Assembly: GCA_963845755.1 (NCBI GenBank)
Contig: CAWJTV010000006.1
Span: forward strand, 1-64,000
Direction: 5' to 3'
Origin: an uncultured Planctomycetota bacterium
GTDB taxonomy: Bacteria > Planctomycetota > Planctomycetia > Isosphaerales > Isosphaeraceae
DNA length: 64,000 nt
In this document: piece by piece, positions 28,764-40,250 of the stretch
Layout: each line of letters opens with the position of its first letter
How positions within the stretch are numbered: the stretch's first letter is position 1
Translations under genes and position numbers: made by a program
The notes under the pieces: model-generated
What the model saw: the letters and a program-made list of their open reading frames with translations, nothing else
Database searches by the model: none
What the model was told of the DNA's origin: nothing

Positions 28764-30274
28764 ATGACCAAGGACATCCAGGTTCTCAAGCTTCGCCAGC
28801 TTCTCGGCGAGGGAATGCCGCTCTACCGTGCGGCTTGGAAGGTGGGTATGGACGCCAAGACCGCTCAAAAGTACCGAGACTCGGATCGCCTGCCCAGTGA
28901 ATCGTGGACTCCCAAGACCTGGCGGACCCGGGAGGATCCGTTCCAGGAAGTCTGGCCGGAACTCCACGATCGGCTGGTGCTCAACCCGGGGCTCCAAGCC
29001 AAGACCCTGTTTGAGGATCTTCAGCATCGCTTCCCGGGCCGGTTCCCCGACGGCCAGCTCCGGACCTTGCAACGGAAGATCAAAGCGTGGCGGGCCACCG
29101 ACGGTCCACCCAAGGAGGTTTTCTTCGATCAGATCCACACGCCCGGCGCGTTGGCGCCTCCGACTTCACTTCCCTGAACGATTTGCAGGTCACACTCGCT
29201 GGCCAATCGTTCGATCACCTGGTCTATCACTTCGTTCTGACCTACTCCAACTGGGAGACCGGCACCGTCTGTTTCTCCGAAAGTTTCGAGAGCCTCAGCC
29301 AGGGGCTCCAGAACGCCCTTTGGGAACTGGGAGGGGTTCCCCAGACTCATCGCACCGATCGGCTCACGGCCGCGGTCAACAACCTCGGCGATCGGGACTT
29401 GTTCCAGCAACGATACCGCGCCTTGATGGCCCACTATGGCATGGCACCTCAAGCCATCCAGGCTGGTAAGGCCAACCAGAACGGAGACGCCGAACAGAGT
29501 CATAACCGGTTCAAACAAGCGATGGATCAGGCCCTGATGTTGCGCAGCGGCCGCGATTTCGCCGACCGAGCAGCCTACGAGCTGTTCCTTCGCCAGGTCT
29601 TCGCTCAGCGCAACAGCGGACGGATCCCGCGGTTCACCGAGGAACGACTGTTGCTGAAGGACCTCCCCTCGCGGCGGGTGGACGCCTGGCACCGGCGCCG
29701 GGTGCGGGTCACCCAGGGGAGTACGATCCGGGTTGGCTCCAACACCTACTCGGTGCCGAGCCGACTCATCGGTGAACAGGTCGATGTCCATGTGATGGCG
29801 GAATGCCTGGAGGTGTGGCACGGCGCGGTGCTGATTGAAAAGGTCCCTCGGCAGCGCGGCCACAACAAACACGTGATTAACTATCGGCACGTGATCGACT
29901 GGTTGGTGCGCAAGCCGGGGGCGTTCGCGGCCTATCGGCACCGGGACGCGATGTTCCCAACCGGCCGGTTTCGCCGAGCCTACGACGTCTTGCTGGCACA
30001 AAGCCCGGCCCGCGCCACCAAGGATTATCTCCGGATCCTGGAGTTGGCGGCGAAGGAGTCGGAAGTCGGGGTTGACGCCGTCCTGGGCCGGCTCTTGGAC
30101 GGGAACATGCCGATCACCCCGACCGTCGTCACGGAGCACCTGGGTCACGACCTGGGCCTGCCTCGCGCGATGGAGGTGGTCGTCACGACGGTGGATTTGT
30201 CGATGTACGACCTGTTACTCGAGACCAGGGAGGATATTCCATCAGTAAGCCAATCGATGTGCATGAGTCTCTGA
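28764..30274 (+). CDS. istA: IS21 transposase (frameshift near 29150)
   Basis: HTH N-terminus, 'SDFT', 'HRTDRLTAAV', 'NGDAEQSH', 'NTYSVPSRLIG'. Confidence 0.9.
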
Positions 30275-31035
30275 CGGACTGCCTTCGCGAGCTCCACCTG
30301 CCGACGATCCGGCAGGCGTACGAATCGGCGGCGGCACGAGCCCGTCAGGAGTTGACCAGTTACGAACGTTACCTCCTGGATCTGGCGGAGCGCGAGTGCG
30401 AGTCGCGGCGTTCCCACCGGGTCGAGCGGTTGTTGCGAGAATCGAGGCTGTTCATGGAAAAGAACCTGTCAAGCCTGGACCTGAAGCGACTGCCGTCCAA
30501 GGCGGCGCAGCAGGTCAGAACTCTGCTCGAAGGCGATTTTGTTGGACGAAATGACAATGTGCTCATATTCGGGAATCCCGGCAGTGGCAAGAGCCACGTG
30601 GCGTGCGCGATCGGGCAGGAACTGATCCGCTCGGGGCGGAAGGTGATGTTCGCGACGTGCGCCTTGATGGTTCAAGATCTGTTGGCCGCGAAGCGCGACC
30701 TGAAGCTGCGCGGTTTTCTCAAGAAGATTTCCCGATATGAGGTGCTGATCCTTGACGATATTGGATACGTACAATACAGCCGGGACGAGATGGAGGTGCT
30801 CTTCAACCTGCTGGCGGAACGGTACGAGCGCGGGAGCGTGATGCTGACGAGCAACCTGCCGTTTTCGGGATGGGAGGCGATCTTCAAGGATCCGATGACG
30901 ACCGCCGCCGCCATCGACCGGCTGGTGCACCATAGCGTGATCGTGGAGTTGAACGTTCCGAGCTACCGAGCCGAGCAGGCCAAGAAGTCGCGTCAAAAGC
31001 CGGTGGAACCGACAGACGCACGAGAGGAGGGATGA
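30259..31035 (+). CDS. istB: IS21 helper ATPase
   Basis: GNPGSGKSH, LILDDIGY, TSN, AAIDRLVHH. Confidence 0.95.
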   Translation: MHESLTDCLRELHLPTIRQAYESAAARARQELTSYERYLLDLAERECESRRSHRVERLLRESRLFMEKNLSSLDLKRLPSKAAQQVRTLLEGDFVGRNDNVLIFGNPGSGKSHVACAIGQELIRSGRKVMFATCALMVQDLLAAKRDLKLRGFLKKISRYEVLILDDIGYVQYSRDEMEVLFNLLAERYERGSVMLTSNLPFSGWEAIFKDPMTTAAAIDRLVHHSVIVELNVPSYRAEQAKKSRQKPVEPTDAREEG

Positions 31036-31295
31036 ACGAGCGCAGGAATGGTTGATCCCAGAGGCGAGAGGGATGGTCAATTGGCCAGAATCCCAGGGGC
31101 TTGTACACTATGGCCGAGTAGGGAATTCTAATTGTCGTTGACAGGGAAATCTAATTGTCGCTAATCAGGCGGGATCGCCTAAAGGGGGAGACCCCCATGG
31201 CGACGGAGCCCCCGTAGTAGTCCGAGACCGGGAAAGCCGGCCACATGGCGAAGGGGGGCAGGTGAGACGGATGGGAGCCTGTGGAGACACGTGAG

Positions 31296-31936
31296 ATGCG
31301 TACCATCGACACAGTGCTGGCCATCCACGGAGATCGAGGGTTCCGAGGTGTTCCTCTGGAACGAGTCTACAAACACCTGTTCGACCCCGAACTCATGCTC
31401 CGAGCCTACGGTAAGATCTACCGGAACGCCGGGGCCATGACCAAGGGCGCCACACCTGAAACAGTGGATGGTATGTGTCTCCAGAAGATCCAGAACATCA
31501 TCGGACTGCTTCGGCGGAACCAATATGTCTGGACGCCCGTTCGCCGAACGGAGATTCCCAAGGCAAACGGAAAGAGACGCCCGCTCGGCATTACTGCGTG
31601 GAGCGACAAACTCCTCCAGGAAGCCCTGCGAACACTCCTGGAACCATACTACGAACGGCGGTTCAGTTCTCACTCCCATGGCTTCCGGCCCGAACAGGGA
31701 TGCCACACGGCTCTCCGCGAAATCCAGAGGACGTGGAAGGGAACGACCTGGTTCATCGAAGGTGACATCAAAGGTTGTTTTGACAATATTGATCATGAAA
31801 TCATGATGTCTATCGTCCAACGAGATATCCACGACGACCGGCTCGTCCAACTGATCCGTGGTCTGCTCAAAGCAGGATATATGGAGGACTGGCGATATAA
31901 TGAGACGCTCAGCGGTACACCGCAGGGCGGTATCAC
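31296..31936 (+). pseudogene. ltrA: Group II intron reverse transcriptase 1, domains 0-4 only
   Basis: 'IPKANGKRRPLGI', 'SHGFRP', 'FIEGDIKGCFDNIDH', ends at 'GTPQGGI'; no YADD. Confidence 0.95.
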
Positions 31937-33953
31937 CACGCCCCCAACAATGTTGCAAAACTGTCCCTGATCCCCGACTCTGTCATTTCCCGATCGCGGC
32001 TCCGACCGAAGTATGGGCAAGGATGGCAGCCCGGGCTCGATCCCCGTCCAAGGCAGGCTGACAGCCGCGGTCTTGGAGAGGATGAGTCAACATGATTACA
32101 TCTCAACGGAGGTCAGCCCTGAGCCCTCCCGTCACCCGCCATTTCGAGTTCACCCGGTTTCAGGATGAGGCGATCGCGCTGGCATACCAGGCCTTGATCC
32201 CGGTCGTTTCTCGCCACCGGGAACGGTCGCGATCGCGATCTCACGACAACGAGCAGGCCACCACAACGATGCAGGGACTCCGATCAAAGGCCAGAGGAGC
32301 TTGACCCGTCATGCTCAATTGCGATCTCTGTGTGGGGACCTATGGCCGGGTCTCCGGGGACCAACAGTCCAAGGAGGACACGATCGCCAGCCAGCTTGAG
32401 GCGATCAGGCAGCGCGTCGCGAGCGACGGCTTGGTATGCTCCCCCGAGCTGTGCTTCGTGGACGATGGCTACACCGGGGATACCCTGGTCCACCCGGGCC
32501 TCGAACGACTTCGGGACCAGGCCGCTGCTGGGACCATCGATCGCCTCTACATTCTCGATCCCGATCGACTTTCACGCAAATATGCCTATCAGGTTTTGAT
32601 ACTCGAGGAACTGGCCCGGTGCGGCGTTGAGGTCGTCTTCCTGCACTCCCCTGGGCCACGGACCCGAAGAGAACCTGCTTGTGCAGGTCCAGGGCATGAT
32701 CGCCGAATACGAGCGTGCCAAGATCATGGAGCGGTGTCGCCGAGGCAAGCAGTACGCCGCCCGCCACGGCTCGGTCAACGTGCTCAGCGGCGCGCCGTAT
32801 GGCTACCGCTACATCGGCAAGCATGAGGGCGGCGGCGCGGCGCGTTATCAGGTCGTGGCCGACAAGGCGCGGATCGTGCGGAAGATCTTCGGGTGGGTCG
32901 GCCAGGAACGATGCTCGATCGGTGAGGTTTGCCGACGTCTGCAACGCGACGGCGTCCCCACGCGGACGGGCAAATCGGCCTGGGACCGCTCGGTGATCTG
33001 GTCGTATCTCAGGAACCCTGCCTACAAGGGGACGGCCGGCTTCGGCAAGACGCCGCGCGGCGCCCTCAAGCCGAAGCGGCTGCGAGCGCAACGCGGCCGT
33101 CCTGAGCAGCCCCGGCGTCCTGTCTCTCGGGTCGATACATCCGCGCAAGAACAAATCTTCATCGATGTCCCCGGTTTGGTGAGCGAGGAACTCTTCGGGA
33201 CGGTTCAAGCTCAACTCGAGGAGAACCGGCAACGCCGGCGCGAACGGCTCCGTGGCGACCGCTATCTCCTCCAGGGGTTAGTTGTCTGCAAACGGTGCGG
33301 CTACGGCTGCTACGGCAAGCCGGTGAGCCGGGCCTCGGCCAAGGGGAAGGTCCCCTACGCCTACTACCGCTGCACCGGCTCCGACGCCTATCGTTTCGGT
33401 GGCCAGCGACTGTGTTGGAACAAGCAGGTCCGCACGGATGTCTTGGACGCCGCCGTCTGGGAAGATGTGCGTCATCTCTTGTCCGAGCCCGAACGGGTTC
33501 GAGTGGAGTACGAACGGCGGCGGCACGGGCCGGAGACAGGCCCAGACCGCGAGGTGAAGCATCTCAACAAATTGATTGCGAATCTAAAAAAGATGATCGC
33601 TCGATTGATCGATGCCTACGGCGAGGGATTACTTAACAAGTCGGAGTTCGAGCCGAGGATCTTGGCAGCGCGCGAGCGCCTGGCCAAACTAGAGGATGAG
33701 TGTCGGCAGCAGATTGACGAGGCCAACCAGGAAGCCGAACTGCGGCTGGTGATCGGCCAGTTGGAGGAGTTCGCGAGACGCGTTTCCCAGGAGTTGCACG
33801 AGCCGGACTGGGCCACGCGACGGGCGATCGTTCGGGCTTTGGTGAAGCAGGTCGAGATCGACGAGCAGGAGGTCCGCATCGTGTATCGGATCAGTCCGTC
33901 CCCTTTTGAGGGAGGCCCCCAACAGGGTTCTTTGCAACATTGTTGGGGGCGTG
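31937..33953 (+). mobile_element. LSR element A (2017 bp): small ORF plus large serine recombinase
   Basis: Perfect 23-bp inverted ends CACGCCCCCAACAATGTTGCAAA (31937-31959) and TTTGCAACATTGTTGGGGGCGTG (33931-33953). Confidence 0.85.
32092..32304 (+). CDS. Small protein upstream of the recombinase
   Basis: 70 aa 'RHFEFTRFQDEAIALAYQALIP'; GAGGA RBS; AGGAG near its end serves the recombinase. Confidence 0.6.
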   Translation: MITSQRRSALSPPVTRHFEFTRFQDEAIALAYQALIPVVSRHRERSRSRSHDNEQATTTMQGLRSKARGA

Positions 33954-34204
33954 ATCGGCGAGCCCTGGGGGCTCCCTCTCCCCTCGTCCTTGTTCCGGGT
34001 GGTCCGATGACGATGGCCCCGCGCGTCGGTCTCTTCCACCGGTGCCTCCAGCCACATCTTGATCAGCTTCAGGACGAAGCGGTCGCTGATGCGCCGGGAC
34101 AGCGATTTCATCAACTCGGCATGGGGTATCGCGTCGAACGAAACCCTACCTTGATACCTCATTCAACAAGCCACTCGCGTCCACGCCCGAGGAGATCGAG
34201 GTAA
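32311..34204 (+). CDS. Large serine recombinase A (frameshift near 32650; reads through the right att site)
   Basis: 'YGRVS' catalytic Ser, 'DPDRLSR', 'APYGY', 'LRNPAYKG', Zn-ribbon CKRC..C..C, coiled coil. Residues after 33953 come from antisense RT sequence. Confidence 0.9.
33954..34138 (-). pseudogene. ltrA: Group II intron RT 2, middle piece (domain 3 to 4)
   Basis: 'FDAIPHAELMKSLSRRISDRFVLKLIKMWLEAPV...GSPQGSPI'. Confidence 0.9.
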
Positions 34205-34476
34205 CCGACCCGACTCATCCCCTCTTCGGTCGCCACTTCCCCGTCCTCTCGGTCTGCCGGCCACCCCACGGCACCCCGTTCGTGCTCGTGGCCTATCGCG
34301 ACGCGATGCGGCTGCGCATCCCACTGTCTTCGACCAGCCTGGCACCGAGCCCGATCCACCCTCCTCGGACAAGATGGACCGCGGAAGCCATCCAGGAACT
34401 TCTTTCCTTGGTCACGGAGGGTGACACGTCATGCCCCAAGCCCAAGACGTCTGGTCAGTGCTCCCGTCAGCCCTGA
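34139..34476 (+). CDS. DUF5372/Y4bD-like small protein; lacks its start codon in the integrated state
   Basis: 'EEIEVTDPTHPLFGRHFPVLSV...'. No ATG/GTG/TTG between the in-frame TGA at 34087 and 34282. Confidence 0.6.
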
Positions 34477-34664
34477 GACAGCAGGTGATCGACGACATCA
34501 CGGCCATCTACGCGGAGGTTATCCATGAGCATTTCCGAACACATTACCCCGTTCCATCTCGGCCGCAAGGCCCTGATCTATGTCCGCCAGTCCAACCCAC
34601 ATCAGGTCCTCACCCACCAGGAGAGCCGTCGTCTTCAGTACGCCCTCCAGCAGCGGGCTCGTGA
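34431..34664 (+). CDS. Small hypothetical protein overlapping the recombinase start
   Basis: GGAGG RBS; 'VWSVLPSALRQQVIDDITAIYAEVIHEH'. Confidence 0.4.
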   Translation: MPQAQDVWSVLPSALRQQVIDDITAIYAEVIHEHFRTHYPVPSRPQGPDLCPPVQPTSGPHPPGEPSSSVRPPAAGS

Positions 34665-36571
34665 GTGTGGCTGGGCGGCCCGAGGACATCGAGATCATCG
34701 ACGCCGACCTCGGCCAGACGGCCAGCACCACTCAAGGCCGGCAGGGATTCCAGGAGATCGTCACTCGGGTCACCCTCGACCAGGTCGGCATCATCTTCTC
34801 TTATGATGTCACCCGACTGTCACGCAACTGCACCGAATGGTACCCAGTCCTCGACCTCTGTGGATTCCGCCGTTGCCTCATCGGCGACCGAGACGGGATC
34901 TACGACCCCGCTACAATCAACGGTCGCCTCTTGCTCGGGCTGAAGGGCCAGATCTCCGAGCTGGAGCTTCATACGATCAAGGCTCGCTTGACGGCCGGCC
35001 TGCTCAACAAGGCACAGCGCGGCGAGCTGGCCCTGTCCCTCCCCGTGGGACTAACACGCGACCCACTGGGCCGCGTCGTGAAGCGACCGGATCGCGAAGT
35101 CCAGGACCGCCTCGACCTCGTCTTCGCCACCTTTCTCCGCATCCGCACCCTCAGTGGGGTCGTCCGTGCATTTCGAGATGAGGACTTGTTGCTACCTCGA
35201 CATGACGACTTCGGCGAAGTCGTCTGGCGCCGCCCAACCGTCCCCTCCGTCCGCTCCATCCTGAAGAACCCGGCGTACGCCGGGTCATTCGTCTACGGCC
35301 GCACCCGGACCGTGAGAGACGGCCCGGGCCGTCGGCCGGTCCAGAAGCCGTTGCCGATGTCCGAGTGGCGAATCCATATCCGGGATATCTATCCCCCCTA
35401 CATCGATTGGGCCACTTATGAGAAGATCCAGGGCATGATCCGCGACAACCACAGCGAATACGATCGGAACCAGACCCGGGGTGTCCCCCGGCCGGGGAAG
35501 GCCCTGCTCCACGGGCTCGTCGCCTGCGGCGAGTGCGGCCACAAGCTGACAGTGCAGTACAAGTTCAAGACGCAATATATTTGCAACTCGATGTGGAAAC
35601 AGCACCGCGCTCCGGTCTGCCAGCGGCTCCCTGCGGACCCGATCGATGACCACGTCGTCCGCCGCTTCTTCGAGGCGTTAGCCCCCGCGGAGTTGGACGT
35701 CTACGACCGGGTCCGGGCCTCGCTCTCGGAAGAACAAGAGCAGATCGGGCGGGCGCGACGGCAGCAACTCGATCGGCTCCGCTACCAGGCTCGACTCGCC
35801 GAGCATCAGTACCAAAAGGCCGACCCCGACAACCGCCTCGTGGCCGCCGAGCTGGAGCGCCGATGGGAGGTGGCTCTGCGGGAGTTGAAAGAGGCCGAAG
35901 AGGCATGGGAACGCGAGCAACACGAACAAGCGACACTGGAGCGTCTCGACCCCGAGACACGGCGGGCACTTACCGAAGCCGGGGAACGAATCCCGGAATG
36001 GTGGCGGGCCGACCGTTTCTCGCAGGAACAGAAGAAGGCGCTACTCCGGAGCCTGATCGACAAGGTCGTCGTCCAACGTACGGCGCCGGACATCGTGCGC
36101 TGCCGGGTTGTCTGGAAGGGAGGTGAGACGACGGACGCCGACCTCGCGGTCACAGTCGGTGCCTGGTCACGCCTGTCAGGCGGCCAAGTGATGGAGCAGA
36201 CGATCCTGGAACTGGCCCGGCAAGGAAAGACCGACCAGGAGATCGCCCGGAGATTGACCGAGGAAGGCCACCGTTCGCCACGGCATGCAATCGTCCTGCC
36301 GAGTACGGTCCAGGCCATCCGTCTGCACCATCGCCTGTACCGCGACCGGAGACGAGCACATCCGCGGCGGATCGCGGGGTTCCTGACCGTGCCGCAACTC
36401 GCCTCGAAGTTGAAGCTTCCCCGAAGCTGGATCTACGACCGCATCCACAATTGCAAGATTCAAGTTGATCTCGATGCCACATGGAAGCTCTATCTGTTCC
36501 CCGACAACCCTGAGACTCTCACCCGGTTTCGGCAACTCGTGGCTGGGAAGCTCAACACCTTACGTTTTTAG
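34525..36571 (+). CDS. Large serine recombinase B (frameshift near 34680)
   Basis: 'ALIYVRQS', 'DVTRLSRN', 'LLLGLKGQISELE', 'LKNPAYAG', CGECG..C..C, C-terminal HTH-like regions. Confidence 0.9.
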
Positions 36572-36591
36572 GAGGGCATCAAGATGCCGTC

Positions 36592-37109
36592 TCGAAGTAA
36601 CCGGAAAGATCGCCGTCGACCACCTCGGTATGCCCGTTCCGGACCAGCCGTTCGACTTGCCTCACGGCGTCGAGGGCGCTCCGTCCTGGGCGATACCCGT
36701 ATTGCTCCGGCTCCAGGTCGGCCTCGAAGATCGGCTCCAAGACCAGCACCGCGGCCATCTGCGCTACGCGGTCCTTGATGCAGGGAATCCCCAGCGGCCT
36801 TTGCTTGCCATCCGGTTTAGGGATGTACACGCGTCGGATCGGCTGGGGTGAGTACGTCCGCTTCTTGAGGTCGTCCGCCAATTCGTCCAGCCATCGGTCC
36901 AGTCCGTATGCTTCGATGTCGTCGAACGTCTGGCCATCGACCCCGGCGGCGCCACCGTTGGCACGGCAGCGGGCGTAGGCTTCCTCCAGGACGTCGCGGC
37001 GATAGACCTTGTCATACAGCGCATAGAACCGATAGTCAGGCGACCCCTTCGCTTTGGTGTGCAACGCCGTCTGGAGTTTCTGAACCGTCGGTGGAGGTGC
37101 TAGGCTCAT
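36592..37109 (-). pseudogene. ltrA: Group II intron RT 2, N-terminal piece
   Basis: 'GAAGVDG', 'YIPKPDGKQRPLGIPCIKDRVAQ', 'YGYRPGRS', 'VDGDLSGYF'. Confidence 0.95.
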
Positions 37110-37770
37110 TGCCAATCTCCTGGCTCTCATGCCCCTTGTGACGCTGACCTTGAACTGAGGCCCCTTTGCTCCGCCGGCGTTACCCGGCTTCCTCGCTCAT
37201 ACGGGCCTCTCCGCCACCTCGGGCGGCCCGACCTGGCCCTCGCGGGTTGTCGGTTGAGGGTCACGCGCCCTCACCGCCGAGGCTTCCCGTGTTGCGTCGG
37301 ATCTCCTCTGCAGGCATGCCACCGCCAATACCCCGGTGGAACCCTGGGAGCGTGTCGCGTCGTGAGGGGTAACCCCCTCTGTCTCCCAGGACGGCGGCCT
37401 TCCCCGTATAGCAACCGGGTCGGCTTCCACATCGGGTTGTTTCGGGGCTTGCACGGCGTTCACTGTCGTTGCGGCCTGCCTGCTCGCCGAACCGCCACAG
37501 CGGCCCGTTGTCTCGAAGGCTTCGACGGCTTTGTCACCTCCGCCGCCGCTCCGATCGCTACCGGATGGAGCGACCAGTTTTCCGGGCGGGATTCGCACCC
37601 GCTGAAGATCCGAGCCTTTTCACGGCGCACTGCTATCGGAACCCCAGCCCGCGTTCGGTGAGTTGGTCCAACAAGGTATCCAGGAGGAGCTGTCCGGCTT
37701 GGCCATTGACCAGGCGAGCGCGGAACTCGCTGAGCACGGTGTGGTTGAACCCAGGATCGTCCAGTTCTAG

Positions 37771-39236
37771 TACTACTCCGTTAAAATTTCCATTTGTTGG
37801 GTGTAGAGATGAGCACAAGGGTGGCAATACGGACAATCCGGTCGCGCCCGTGGGCTCAGCAACCGCTGCAAGGCGCGACGGATCGCCGGCAAGGTGATCC
37901 GTCGCGCCTTATCCCCTTTTTTTCTCGGCACGGCCGGGTGCTCTTTCTCTCGAAGTTGTTCCAGGACCAGGAAACCGAACGCCAACATCACCAGGCAGAC
38001 ATGGTGATGGAAGCCGCGCCACGAACGGCCCTCGAAATGATCCAGACCCAACTCCTCCTTCATCTGTTGGTAGCCTTGCTCGACCGGCCATCGGCTCTTC
38101 CACAATCGGACCGCCCGCAGCCGCGGGGTGTCGGCCGGCAGGTTGCTGAAGGCGTACTTCAACGTGCCGTCGGCCTGCCGCTCGATCAACAGCCAAATCG
38201 GCTCGGCCCCGGCACAGTCGCCCGTGGCCCAGCCGCCGCCGGGCCAGACCCGCAACCAGGCGAAGTGGCCCGACAGCTTCCCTTTGGTCCCCTCGCGCCA
38301 GGTCACCTTGTGCAGGGTCGTCCGTGCCGCCAGGTCCTTCAGGCTCACGGGCCGGGGGGTACCCTCGGCCAACCGGGGCCGCCGCCGCGGCCGTCCGCCC
38401 GTCCCCTCAGGCCGCGCCGCTGGCCCGGGTGGCTCCCACTGAGGCTCGGCGGTGAAGACGACCATCTCGTCGGTGACACCCACGATGTACGCCAGCCCAC
38501 GAGCGGCCAACCCCTTGCGAAAGTCCTCCGAGACCCCGTAACCGGCGTCGGCCACGGCGAGCCACCCCGGCAGCCCTTCGCCGCGCACCATGTCCAGCAA
38601 TCCCAAGGCGATCTCGCCTTTGGTCTGGGCTCGACGGACGGCCTCCGGAACACCCGCCGCGCCCAGTCGCTTCGGATCCTGGATCCAGGAGTCGGGCAAG
38701 AACAGCCGCATTGCCAACGGATAATGGCCCTTGGGGCTAACGTAGTGGACCGAGGGGGCCACCTGGCAATTGGCCTTCTTGCCCAAGGCCCCGCAATATT
38801 GCCTCTGGACACCGACGGAGTGCTTCCCCTGCTTGGGGAAACCCGTGTCGTCGAAGACGAAGATCCCTTGGGGGCTGGCGAAGGTCTGGGCCAGGTGCTT
38901 TCGATAGTCGCGTGCGAGCTCCTGGTCGTCCCAGGGGCTCTGGTTGACGAACTGCTGGAGGGCCTGCTCCTTGTCCTTGACGTCCAGGTCCGGCGGGAGC
39001 GTGACGCGACCGGAGAGGGGCTCGATGCTCTTGCGTTCGCCGTCCTGGAGCAGCCCTTGGAGAGAGACCCCGCTCCAGGCGGCCTGCGCCTTGTGGGAGA
39101 AGCCATCGCGGAACACGTCCGCATAATCCCGAAGTCGCTCGAGGACTTCGGGCGTCAGTTCGGGGGTGTAAGTCTTGCTCATAATGATCATACGAACAAA
39201 GGCCCCGAGAAGTTCGTAGGATCTAACGGAGTAGTA
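37771..39236 (-). mobile_element. IS701-family element; transposase 39182-37773 intact
   Basis: 13-bp IR TACTACTCCGTTA, CTAG duplication; 'FDDTGFPKQGKHSVGVQRQYCG', 'ADAGYG', 'RWPVEQGYQQMKEELGLDHFEGRSW'. Confidence 0.95.
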
Positions 39237-39237
39237 C

Positions 39238-40250
39238 TAGAGTCGCCTTACGTTTGCATTGCATACGCCGCACGGTGTCCGAACCAGCCCGCGATATCCT
39301 CGGGGAGTCACGTCATGCAAGGCCGAGACGAACGCCGCATAGACCGCCTCCTTCGTCCGCGCCGCCATCGATCGCATCGCACCTTTAATCTTCGAGGCCA
39401 TCTCCTCATAGGGCGTCAGGTCCGGACTCCACGGCGGCAACGGCACCAAGTCGGCCCCGGCCCCCGCGACAGCCTCGGCCGCCTCCTCCGACTGGTGCGA
39501 CGACAGGTTGTCCCAGATGACCACGTCGCCGGGCTTCAACTCCGGGACCAGGACATCCTCCACGTAGTTCTCGAACATGGCCTGATTGGTGGCGCCGGGA
39601 AGGCCAACGCCGCCGTCACCCCGGAGAGGCGAACCCCGCAGGTGAGCGTGATCGAATCCCAGTGGCCGGGGGTATCGGTGTAGACGCGCTGGCCCACCGG
39701 GGCACGGCCGTAGGTCCTCGTCATGGACGTGTTGGCCCCGCATTCGTCCACGAAAACCAGCCGGTGCGGGTCGATGCCGGAGAGGGCCTCACAGAAATCC
39801 CGCCGTTTCTCCTGGACCTCCGGGCGATCCTGCTCGTTGCGCGCGGGACCTTCTTCTTGCGCGGCAACCCCAGCTTGTCCAGGGCGCGACAGATGGCGGC
39901 GGTGCTGCAAGCGACGCCGAGGCGCTTTTGCAACTCTTCGAGGGTGGCGTCGGGCTGCTGGCGGACCAACTCGCGGAGCCGCTCGTAATCCTCCGGTCCC
40001 AGCGCCGGCGGATGACCGCCGCGGTGGGGCTTGGGCGCGATCGAGCCGGTCCGGCGGTGGATCTGCAACAAGCGAACGACGAACGAGAGGCTGACGACGA
40101 AGCGGCGAGCGATCTGACGGATCGAGCCCTCGCCGCGCTCGACCGCGTCCAGGACGCGTTGTCGGAGATCGTGGGAATACGGGGACATGGGTCACCTCCT
40201 CACGAGAATCTCCGTTCAAATCGTATGCCATCCAACCGTTCGGCGCTCTA
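39238..40250 (-). mobile_element. IS630-family element, copy 1
   Basis: TAGAG...CTCTA ends; 'FVDECG', 'IWDNLSSH', 'LPPWSPDLTPYE'; near-identical to 56031-57043. Confidence 0.9.

Follow-up and report, generated by a model that had tools for sequence, protein, structure and literature searches.

Can a gene be arranged in such a way that it is complete only while the mobile element carrying it is outside the chromosome? This question is raised by a short element, here called element B, in a contig of an uncultured Planctomycetota bacterium of the Isosphaeraceae (GenBank assembly GCA_963845755.1, contig CAWJTV010000006.1), of which positions 1 to 64,000 were analyzed (the window, to which all coordinates refer). 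Element B extends from 34134 to 36596 (2,458 bp plus a shared TCGAA). It is a minimal large-serine-recombinase (LSR) element, and its host gene, to which it is antisense, is the reverse transcriptase (RT) gene of a group II intron. A sequence-only reading of the window had pointed out a ribosome-binding site and an ATG at one end of the element and a start-less DUF5372-like gene at the other, and had proposed that the full protein could be made only from the excised circle. The attachment site of the element indeed divides this gene in two, and we consider it likely that the small protein is made only at the circle stage, as an accessory factor of the LSR.

Both parts of the gene can be read directly from the window, on the plus strand and in the arrangement originally described. 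At the right end, the junction attR (TCGAA, 36592-36596) overlaps the P arm of attP, i.e. the right half-site (36571-36594), which contains GGAGG (36571-36575), ATCAAG (36578-36583) and an ATG (36584-36586) with three further codons. The GGAGG resembles a Shine-Dalgarno (SD) sequence, overlaps the stop codon of the LSR gene (34525-36571, TAG at 36569-36571) and is spaced 8 nt from the ATG. At the left end, attL (34134-34138) has the TCGAA in common with the right junction and is followed by the P' arm or left half-site (34139-34162, with CTTGAT at 34150-34155), which encodes residues 2-10 of the DUF5372-like protein. The body of the DUF5372-like gene (34135-34476) has 113 codons and ends with TGA (34474-34476). 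Its frame has an upstream stop at 34087-34089 and no start codon between, and the first ATG, GTG or TTG is the GTG at 34282, which is codon 49 of the 113.

The right end reads ATG CCG TCT CGA A, and the body frame at the left end reads CGA ACG AAA CCC TAC. In either copy of TCGAA, the CGA is read as a codon in the frame at that end, so that head and body join in frame once the ends are brought together, as had been claimed. In the inserted state, the head ATG instead opens a 64-codon open reading frame (ORF, 36584-36778) that runs into the flank in a meaningless frame. The target with element B taken out reads VDGDLSGYFDAIPHAEL.

The crossover itself could be narrowed down with the help of two further copies in the source genome (14.3 Mb in 49 contigs), which hardly differ from each other, share 74% identity with element B and have different flanks. 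Both junctions of these two paralogues (L002 and L003) have only AA in common, and the crossover is therefore the dinucleotide AA (34137-34138 at attL and 36595-36596 at attR), not the TCGAA that had been taken for the core. The paralogue head, ATG CCC GAT CCA A, differs from that in the window, is of equal length, and is in frame with its own body. In the joined frame, the crossover AA spans codons 4 and 5, and so lies inside the element's own coding sequence. The reported symmetry of ATCAAG and CTTGAT about the AA is present, each being 11 nt away from it. Overall, the two attP arms of element B mirror each other (reverse complement of left versus right) at 14 of 22 positions, and those of relatives at 11-17 of 22. 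The features by which LSR elements are recognized can hence be named for element B: a 2-bp core that is present once per junction, and imperfect inverted half-sites that flank it in attP. The right half-site generally overlaps or adjoins the LSR stop codon, and across phyla strong conservation at the DNA level is seen over approximately the last 15 nt of the LSR gene (…TTGCGTTTTT…).

As the sequences and their comparison show, attP lies within the first codons of the element's own DUF5372-like gene, and a complete cistron (SD, ATG and body) exists only when the ends are joined. Integration at AA splits the gene into a head (SD, ATG and three codons) at attR and a start-less body at attL. The proposal that the full protein comes only from the circle is borne out for the cistron; production of the protein from the circle would be its expected consequence.

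Conservation, spread and targets

By the comparisons that follow, element B is a copy of a widespread family of minimal LSR-moved elements of about 2.4-3 kb. The same bacterial family was represented by 121 genomes, in which we searched for the body and from which we took 40 full-length loci. The body was found in 25 of the 121 genomes (own genome included), in up to nine places per genome. A metagenome set comprised 80 loci among at least 482 relatives. In this set, an LSR was located downstream of the body in 77 of the 80 loci, and the other three contigs show no LSR. For the attachment arms, a set of 80 complete loci was used, of which 37 were from the bacterial family and 43 from metagenomes.

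As a safeguard against circularity, right arms were located solely from the reverse complement of the left arm, i.e. blind to the ATG. Among the 80 complete loci, 58 right arms were found in this way, each with an ATG in frame at 11 or 14 nt ahead of the crossover; of these 58, L156 turned out to be a spurious place, the true arm being 415 nt past the LSR stop. For the other 22 loci, the arm is beside the LSR stop in 13 and at the very contig end in 3. In another 4, which carry extra DNA, it follows the LSR stop at a distance of 416-615 nt and is still at the end of the element. In the remaining 2 (L076 and L115), no right arm was located. In total, an SD-like run and an in-frame ATG are present in the right arm of 78 of the 80 complete relatives. 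By these counts and the open-frame counts given below, chance does not account for the arrangement. By its position, the SD-ATG signal is tied to the end of the element and not to the LSR stop. The sequence-only reading had asked whether relatives also lack a start and carry an in-frame ribosome-binding site and ATG, and had named a non-conserved frame across the attachment site as evidence against itself. These counts answer the first question in the affirmative, also across phyla, and a loss of frame was not found among the 78 or in the several phyla described below.

On the side of the body, the first canonical in-frame start is inside the body (codon 11-59) in 35 of 43 loci of the family set and is supplied by the flank in 8. 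The DUF5372-like domain is conserved at 35 to 100% identity in over 140 distinct copies, without stops, and the idea that the body is a dead remnant was rejected for this reason. Gene callers give homologues ragged N-termini, drawn from the flanks or from chance GTG or TTG codons, and in most plasmid records in RefSeq the body is not annotated. Annotation pipelines miss the DUF5372-like gene because it is start-less when inserted.

The same layout was seen in contigs titled Chloroflexia, Anaerolineales, Ktedonobacteraceae, Thiorhodococcus, Thiodictyon, Lamprobacter, Marinobacter, Burkholderiaceae, Bradyrhizobium, Acidobacteriaceae, Gloeobacterales and Rubrobacter, and in ten copies within one complete Wolbachia chromosome. 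It thus extends to Chloroflexota, Alpha-, Beta- and Gammaproteobacteria, Acidobacteriota, Cyanobacteria and Rubrobacter. In these wider taxa, an arm with an in-frame ATG is visible in at least 32 of 51 loci; in the others, the contig stops short or no right end was found.

The core dinucleotide varies within the family (AA, TA, TT, AT, CA and GT; for example TT in L139 and L209, CA in L095, TA in L222 and L223, and AT in L103 and L104). L139, which has a TT core, is inserted in the opposite orientation within its RT gene, as would be expected if the core alone sets the orientation on a near-palindromic site (GATCG-core-CGATC).

In 48 of 64 distinct rebuilt target sites, the opposite strand codes for the RT motif D-x-x-x-(F/Y/C)-F-D-x-(I/V/L)-x-H, and several more of the 64 are RT-like though they fail the motif pattern. 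The crossover target of element B is the DNA for F-D of this motif. A subgroup with 37% identity is inserted in the MRKSFDGL motif of IS66 tnpB, and one IMG/VR copy, with a GT core, is inside a phage capsid-like gene; the loci behind these IS66 tnpB and capsid-like insertions are L070, L071 and L075, and L240 (3275-3890). The RT and IS66 tnpB target classes have a TTCGA-like stretch coding for F-D in common.

Some copies (loci L038-L051, G069 and G070) mix RT types between the left and right flank. In L047, for example, the left flank reads ...FDSIPHHEL and the right flank VEVDIRKF.... Such flanks suggest rearrangements between copies in multi-copy genomes.

Start codon, free form and function of the protein

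The frame of the body is kept open from the crossover to the domain. Within 20 codons past the crossover, stops are present in none of 109 distinct sequences in the body frame, versus 33 and 91 in the other two frames (mean G+C 0.53). With DPxHPL as an anchor that is independent of alignment length, at least 20 codons ahead of this motif are free of stops in the body frame in 144 of 144 distinct copies. Start codons in the same interval are rare or scattered. An in-frame ATG between crossover and domain is present in 1 of 129 distinct copies, only scattered GTG or TTG codons in 48, and none of these in 80. The commonest internal start, a GTG for the Val before T-D-P, is found in 19 of the 129, versus GTC in 70, GTA in 27 and GTT in 12, and looks like plain synonymous usage. 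The GTG at 34282 of element B was considered as the true start and rejected, since it is located after the conserved DPxHPL core at a position that is not conserved. Internal starts in homologues, the other argument that had been named against the split gene, were therefore looked for and not found at any conserved place. While inserted, some copies have a stop as their junction codon (TGA in L055 and L059, TAG in L237); the TAG of L237, an IMG/VR copy, would become CAG in the joined form.

The DUF5372-like protein has a weak match to Pfam DUF5372 (PF17342; E-value 0.0056, 17.1 bits versus a cut-off of 25, profile positions 1-52 of 78). The profile is matched at E-values up to 0.01 by 9 of 15 aligned relatives (best 6.3e-4), and PF17342 is precomputed on 5 of 78 database homologues. 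The nearest clusters in the Atlas were DUF5372 sets in 29 of 30 cases (best score 0.95). A structure model predicts four strands, in an SH3-like barrel, and in addition a C-terminal helix (mean pLDDT 75.9, and 92-96 for residues 21-70), with the first 14 residues, which are encoded by the attachment arm, disordered. A sequence search of solved structures with this protein gave nothing below an E-value of 0.2, and Foldseek with the model gave no match at E-values up to 0.001. We also predicted the complex of the protein with an intact cognate LSR. The scores were 0.60, 0.60 and 0.59, versus 0.00 for the best control, which the scoring grades as weak support. At least 83% of contacts are shared between the runs, and the pLDDT of the partner is at least 62. 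Of 157 solved complexes, 116 attain the mark applied to such scores, as do 2 of 215 mismatches, and at scores of 0.60 or below there are only 18 of those solved complexes and both of the passing mismatches.

The exact target site without the element was found in a soil RNA library (metatranscriptome). One contig of 492 nt joins 34133 to 36592 and skips 2,458 nt, with 5 shared letters at the joint and differences at 6 of 261 flank positions (3 on either side). It may come from the same intron or a near relative of it, and may represent an uninterrupted relative rather than an excision product. Among public runs, none contained more than 0.10 of the sampled words of the stretch. IMG/VR contained two loci, both inserted copies, and no free form.

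These data lead us to the following proposal. Excision would give a circle in which the LSR stop, the SD, the ATG and the body are in one line. Ribosomes and transcripts leaving the LSR gene would then enter the DUF5372-like gene, and the SH3-like protein would appear at the circle stage only. It would most likely be an accessory factor of the LSR that acts on the free element, and it might favor reinsertion or damp the excision of sister copies. A more specific version, in which the protein is a new kind of LSR cofactor with a built-in state sensor that biases reinsertion or blocks the excision of sister copies, is put forward tentatively and is in our estimate less probable than not by a clear distance.

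Several observations weigh against the proposal, and some of them are what one would expect if the ATG and purine run at the right end were kept merely as a binding site of the LSR, with a weak or non-canonical internal start serving the body of the inserted copy and the frame being an inherited accident with no bearing on regulation. The mirroring of the two arms includes ATCAAG and the G-rich run, both of which recur on the left arm, so that a role in binding may be what conserves part of the "SD". The head peptide is not conserved after the Met (M-P-S-R, M-P-D-P, M-R-D-R, M-H-D-R, M-K-R-H-R). All copies come from one ancestor, and the arm length is set by the recombinase, so that the in-frame relation must in part be inherited rather than re-invented in each copy. 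The 48 of 129 copies with a GTG or TTG before the domain may allow translation of the inserted body from a weak start. Other points concern the circle and the protein. The LSR end was directly upstream of the body in 0 of the 80 metagenome loci, and no back-joint was present in contigs of four runs (depth approximately 2 on element B), which is uninformative on circle formation. No sigma-70-like site was found in 33900-36800 as inserted, although the consensus may not hold for this phylum. A wide fold search gave only generic KOW-, SH3- and Tudor-like barrels (best Z 5.4, rmsd 2.2 over 48 residues), and the complex with the LSR is a weak pass. We nevertheless regard the binding-site explanation as unlikely. 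The ATG is present in 78 of 80 right arms, whereas the positions of the left arm that mirror it vary (GTA, AAA, GCA, TTG). In the subgroup with 37% identity, the ATG is 3 nt further out at the same arm length (ATCATGAAG in place of ATCAAGATG); the start has moved by exactly one codon, and the frame is kept. In loci with extra DNA beyond the LSR, the SD and ATG remain at the end of the element. Internal starts have no conserved position, the GTG before T-D-P being confined to its 19 copies, and the frame is never closed between crossover and domain, which a start at the domain would not need.

Another explanation, possible but in our view the lesser expectation, is that the split mainly switches a whole operon. 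A promoter near the right end, together with SD and ATG, would drive the DUF5372-like gene, the small overlapping gene orfX (see below) and the LSR gene in the circle only, as in Tn4451. In the circle, head, body, orfX and LSR follow each other on one strand with overlapping or abutting signals, in keeping with this explanation. Further support comes from the strong DNA conservation at the end of the LSR gene and from precedents of state-dependent integrase transcription (Tn4451 and, as described in a source cited below, Pcirc of ICEclc and P3'end of ICEKp1). It is at odds with the lack of a promoter-like site in or around the element (33900-36800, inserted form), and with the need to make LSR from the inserted copy too, as there would otherwise be no excision. 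This explanation is compatible with the circle-stage accessory factor that we favor; the LSR would then be the regulated product that matters, and the DUF5372-like gene just the first cistron. The suggestion of an "integration or directionality factor" in the sequence-only reading is a guess. A classical recombination directionality factor (RDF), switching the LSR to attL x attR, might be expected as a small protein encoded beside the LSR, as it is in the 77 metagenome loci, and the weakly supported contact with the LSR would suit it. However, by architecture the inserted copy has neither SD nor start, so that an RDF could come only in trans from a pre-existing circle, and among solved proteins of known function there is none that it resembles in sequence or fold. 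The DUF5372-like protein is unlikely to be an excision factor because it would be absent before excision, and we give the RDF explanation very little credence.

Recombinase gene, orfX and surroundings

In its main frame, the LSR matches the resolvase catalytic domain (Resolvase, PF00239, E-value 1.1e-12), the recombinase domain (Recombinase, PF07508, 9e-15) and the zinc-ribbon domain (Zn_ribbon_recom, PF13408, 1.5e-07). Its N-terminal 51 codons (with ...YVRQS...) are in one frame and the remainder in the next, with a 1-nt surplus near 34677; tblastn accordingly aligns pieces 1-51 and 52/55-681 in two frames. Intact relatives have an LSR of 681-691 amino acids, present as whole ORFs in L044, L052, L057, L064, L068 and L070, and the LSR genes of both paralogues in the same genome are intact. 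A soil metagenome contig is identical over 34475-34738 without base 34677 (263 nt, depth 2.9, one contig). Since this contig is otherwise identical without the extra base, the frameshift near 34677 is probably an assembly error rather than decay.

A small overlapping gene, orfX (34431-34664, plus strand, 77 codons in the window), starts within the 3' end of the DUF5372-like gene and crosses the LSR start in another, third frame. It has an SD of its own (GGAGGG, 34414-34419) and the pattern W..L....RQQ.I.DI..I..EV.HE. No match to a Pfam or Atlas family was found. The codon-position entropy in its own frame is 0.77/0.58/1.01 (28 distinct spacers), and the gene is kept in an AT-rich IMG/VR relative too. 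Judged by this codon-position pattern, orfX is a real gene. It is complete when inserted, and thereby a candidate factor for the inserted state that is better placed than the DUF5372-like protein.

The body stop and the LSR start are in one frame in 78 of 86 loci, with a spacing of 3 to 51 nt that is always a multiple of three; in the remaining 8 they overlap as ATGA. This frame agreement is probably explained by the constraint from the overlapping orfX. A read-through fusion of the DUF5372-like protein to the LSR was considered and rejected, since the spacer contains further in-frame stops in 5 of the 78 loci and its codon pattern fits the orfX frame.

The interrupted RT gene is on the minus strand. 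Its N-terminal part (36597-37130) ends with ...DGDLSGYFE, the last codon being across the junction, and matches Pfam RVT_1 with an E-value of 3.1e-10 (36579-37130). The continuation (33960-34133, within a minus-strand ORF at 33689-34162) extends from …FDAIPHAELMKSL… to …PQGSP and is cut further on by element A. Element A (approximately 31932-33958) is a second LSR element that is likewise frameshifted as assembled. It occupies the PQGG motif of RT genes, and its ends are inverted repeats (arms 31911-31959 and 33931-33979). It is flanked by two N-terminal RT halves that both face inward (31281-31970 on the plus strand, 33960-34133 on the minus strand); the two halves therefore belong to different introns, suggesting either an inversion or an exchange between copies. 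The neighborhood is rich in mobile genes, as judged by ORF translations: an IS21-like pair consists of an integrase-core-like ORF (29087-30274) and an ATPase-like ORF (30259-31035), and transposase-like ORFs are present at 37773-39191 and 39237-40188 (both on the minus strand).

Meaning and comparison with known systems

A gene that is complete only in the free form would be a simple, hard-wired means by which an element registers whether it is integrated or free. For the insertion of large DNA into genomes, serine integrases are leading tools, and the control of their direction is the central question in their biology. To our knowledge, their known direction factors are few, mutually unrelated and hard to predict. 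If the DUF5372-like protein acts on the LSR, it would offer a new handle on integration efficiency, and if the cofactor interpretation is true, direction would depend on the assembly of a gene rather than on a regulated excision factor. Given the spread of the family and its targets (intron RTs and IS66 tnpB), the elements would then form a widespread class of parasites of parasites. Their insertion in conserved motifs of genes of other mobile elements is relevant to the ecology of mobile DNA.

The term "DUF5372" was absent from the papers searched, and the literature searched on circular intermediates of serine-recombinase elements, on attP within ORFs and on LSRs with group II introns contained no description of this family. 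Related arrangements are nevertheless known. Insertion sequences (IS) can have a promoter, Pjunc, that is formed by the joined ends. In Tn4451, a junction promoter in the circle drives tnpX. PMC13023037 has a paper by Lyras and Rood (2000) in its reference list, and its Discussion describes the circle-dependent promoters Pcirc of ICEclc and P3'end of ICEKp1, two integrative and conjugative elements (ICEs). According to PMC4557955, the attP of mycobacteriophage BPs and its relatives is inside the repressor gene, so that the inserted and free forms encode different products, and PMC7253208 describes a recombination site within the tyrosine integrase gene of SSV-type archaeal viruses and plasmids, where integration cuts the gene in two. 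BPs, SSV and the circle promoters are precedents for state dependence. In none of them is an accessory gene of a serine-recombinase element divided between its start codon and its body.

Tn4451 and Tn4453 of clostridia, which are moved by the LSR TnpX, resemble element B in that an LSR moves the element via a circle and the joined ends create an expression signal, for element B at the level of the sequence only. They differ in what is joined. The junction of Tn4451/Tn4453 gives a promoter for the recombinase gene, whereas in element B it is an accessory gene, separate from that of the recombinase, whose body is placed behind a ribosome-binding site and start codon. Element B is also far smaller, is without cargo and targets a conserved motif in genes of other mobile elements.

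The likeness to the integration-dependent immunity of BPs is an attP inside an accessory gene that is not the recombinase, by which the element would sense its own state. BPs uses a tyrosine integrase and has its attP near the 3' end of the repressor gene, such that both forms are translated and the inserted form is active. In element B, attP is at codons 4-5, the inserted form is start-less and only the free form is complete. The "suicidal" integrases of the SSV type likewise have the recombination site in the element's own ORF, and their gene is split by integration; there, the split gene is that of the tyrosine integrase, whereas in element B the LSR gene is not crossed and a small neighbor gene is split. 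With the circle promoters of ICEs and IS elements (Pcirc, P3'end and Pjunc), element B has in common that gene expression would depend on joined ends. Those promoters act on transcription and leave the coding sequence whole, whereas in element B the coding sequence itself is split, which would add a coding-sequence version to the circle-dependent expression that is known at the level of promoters.

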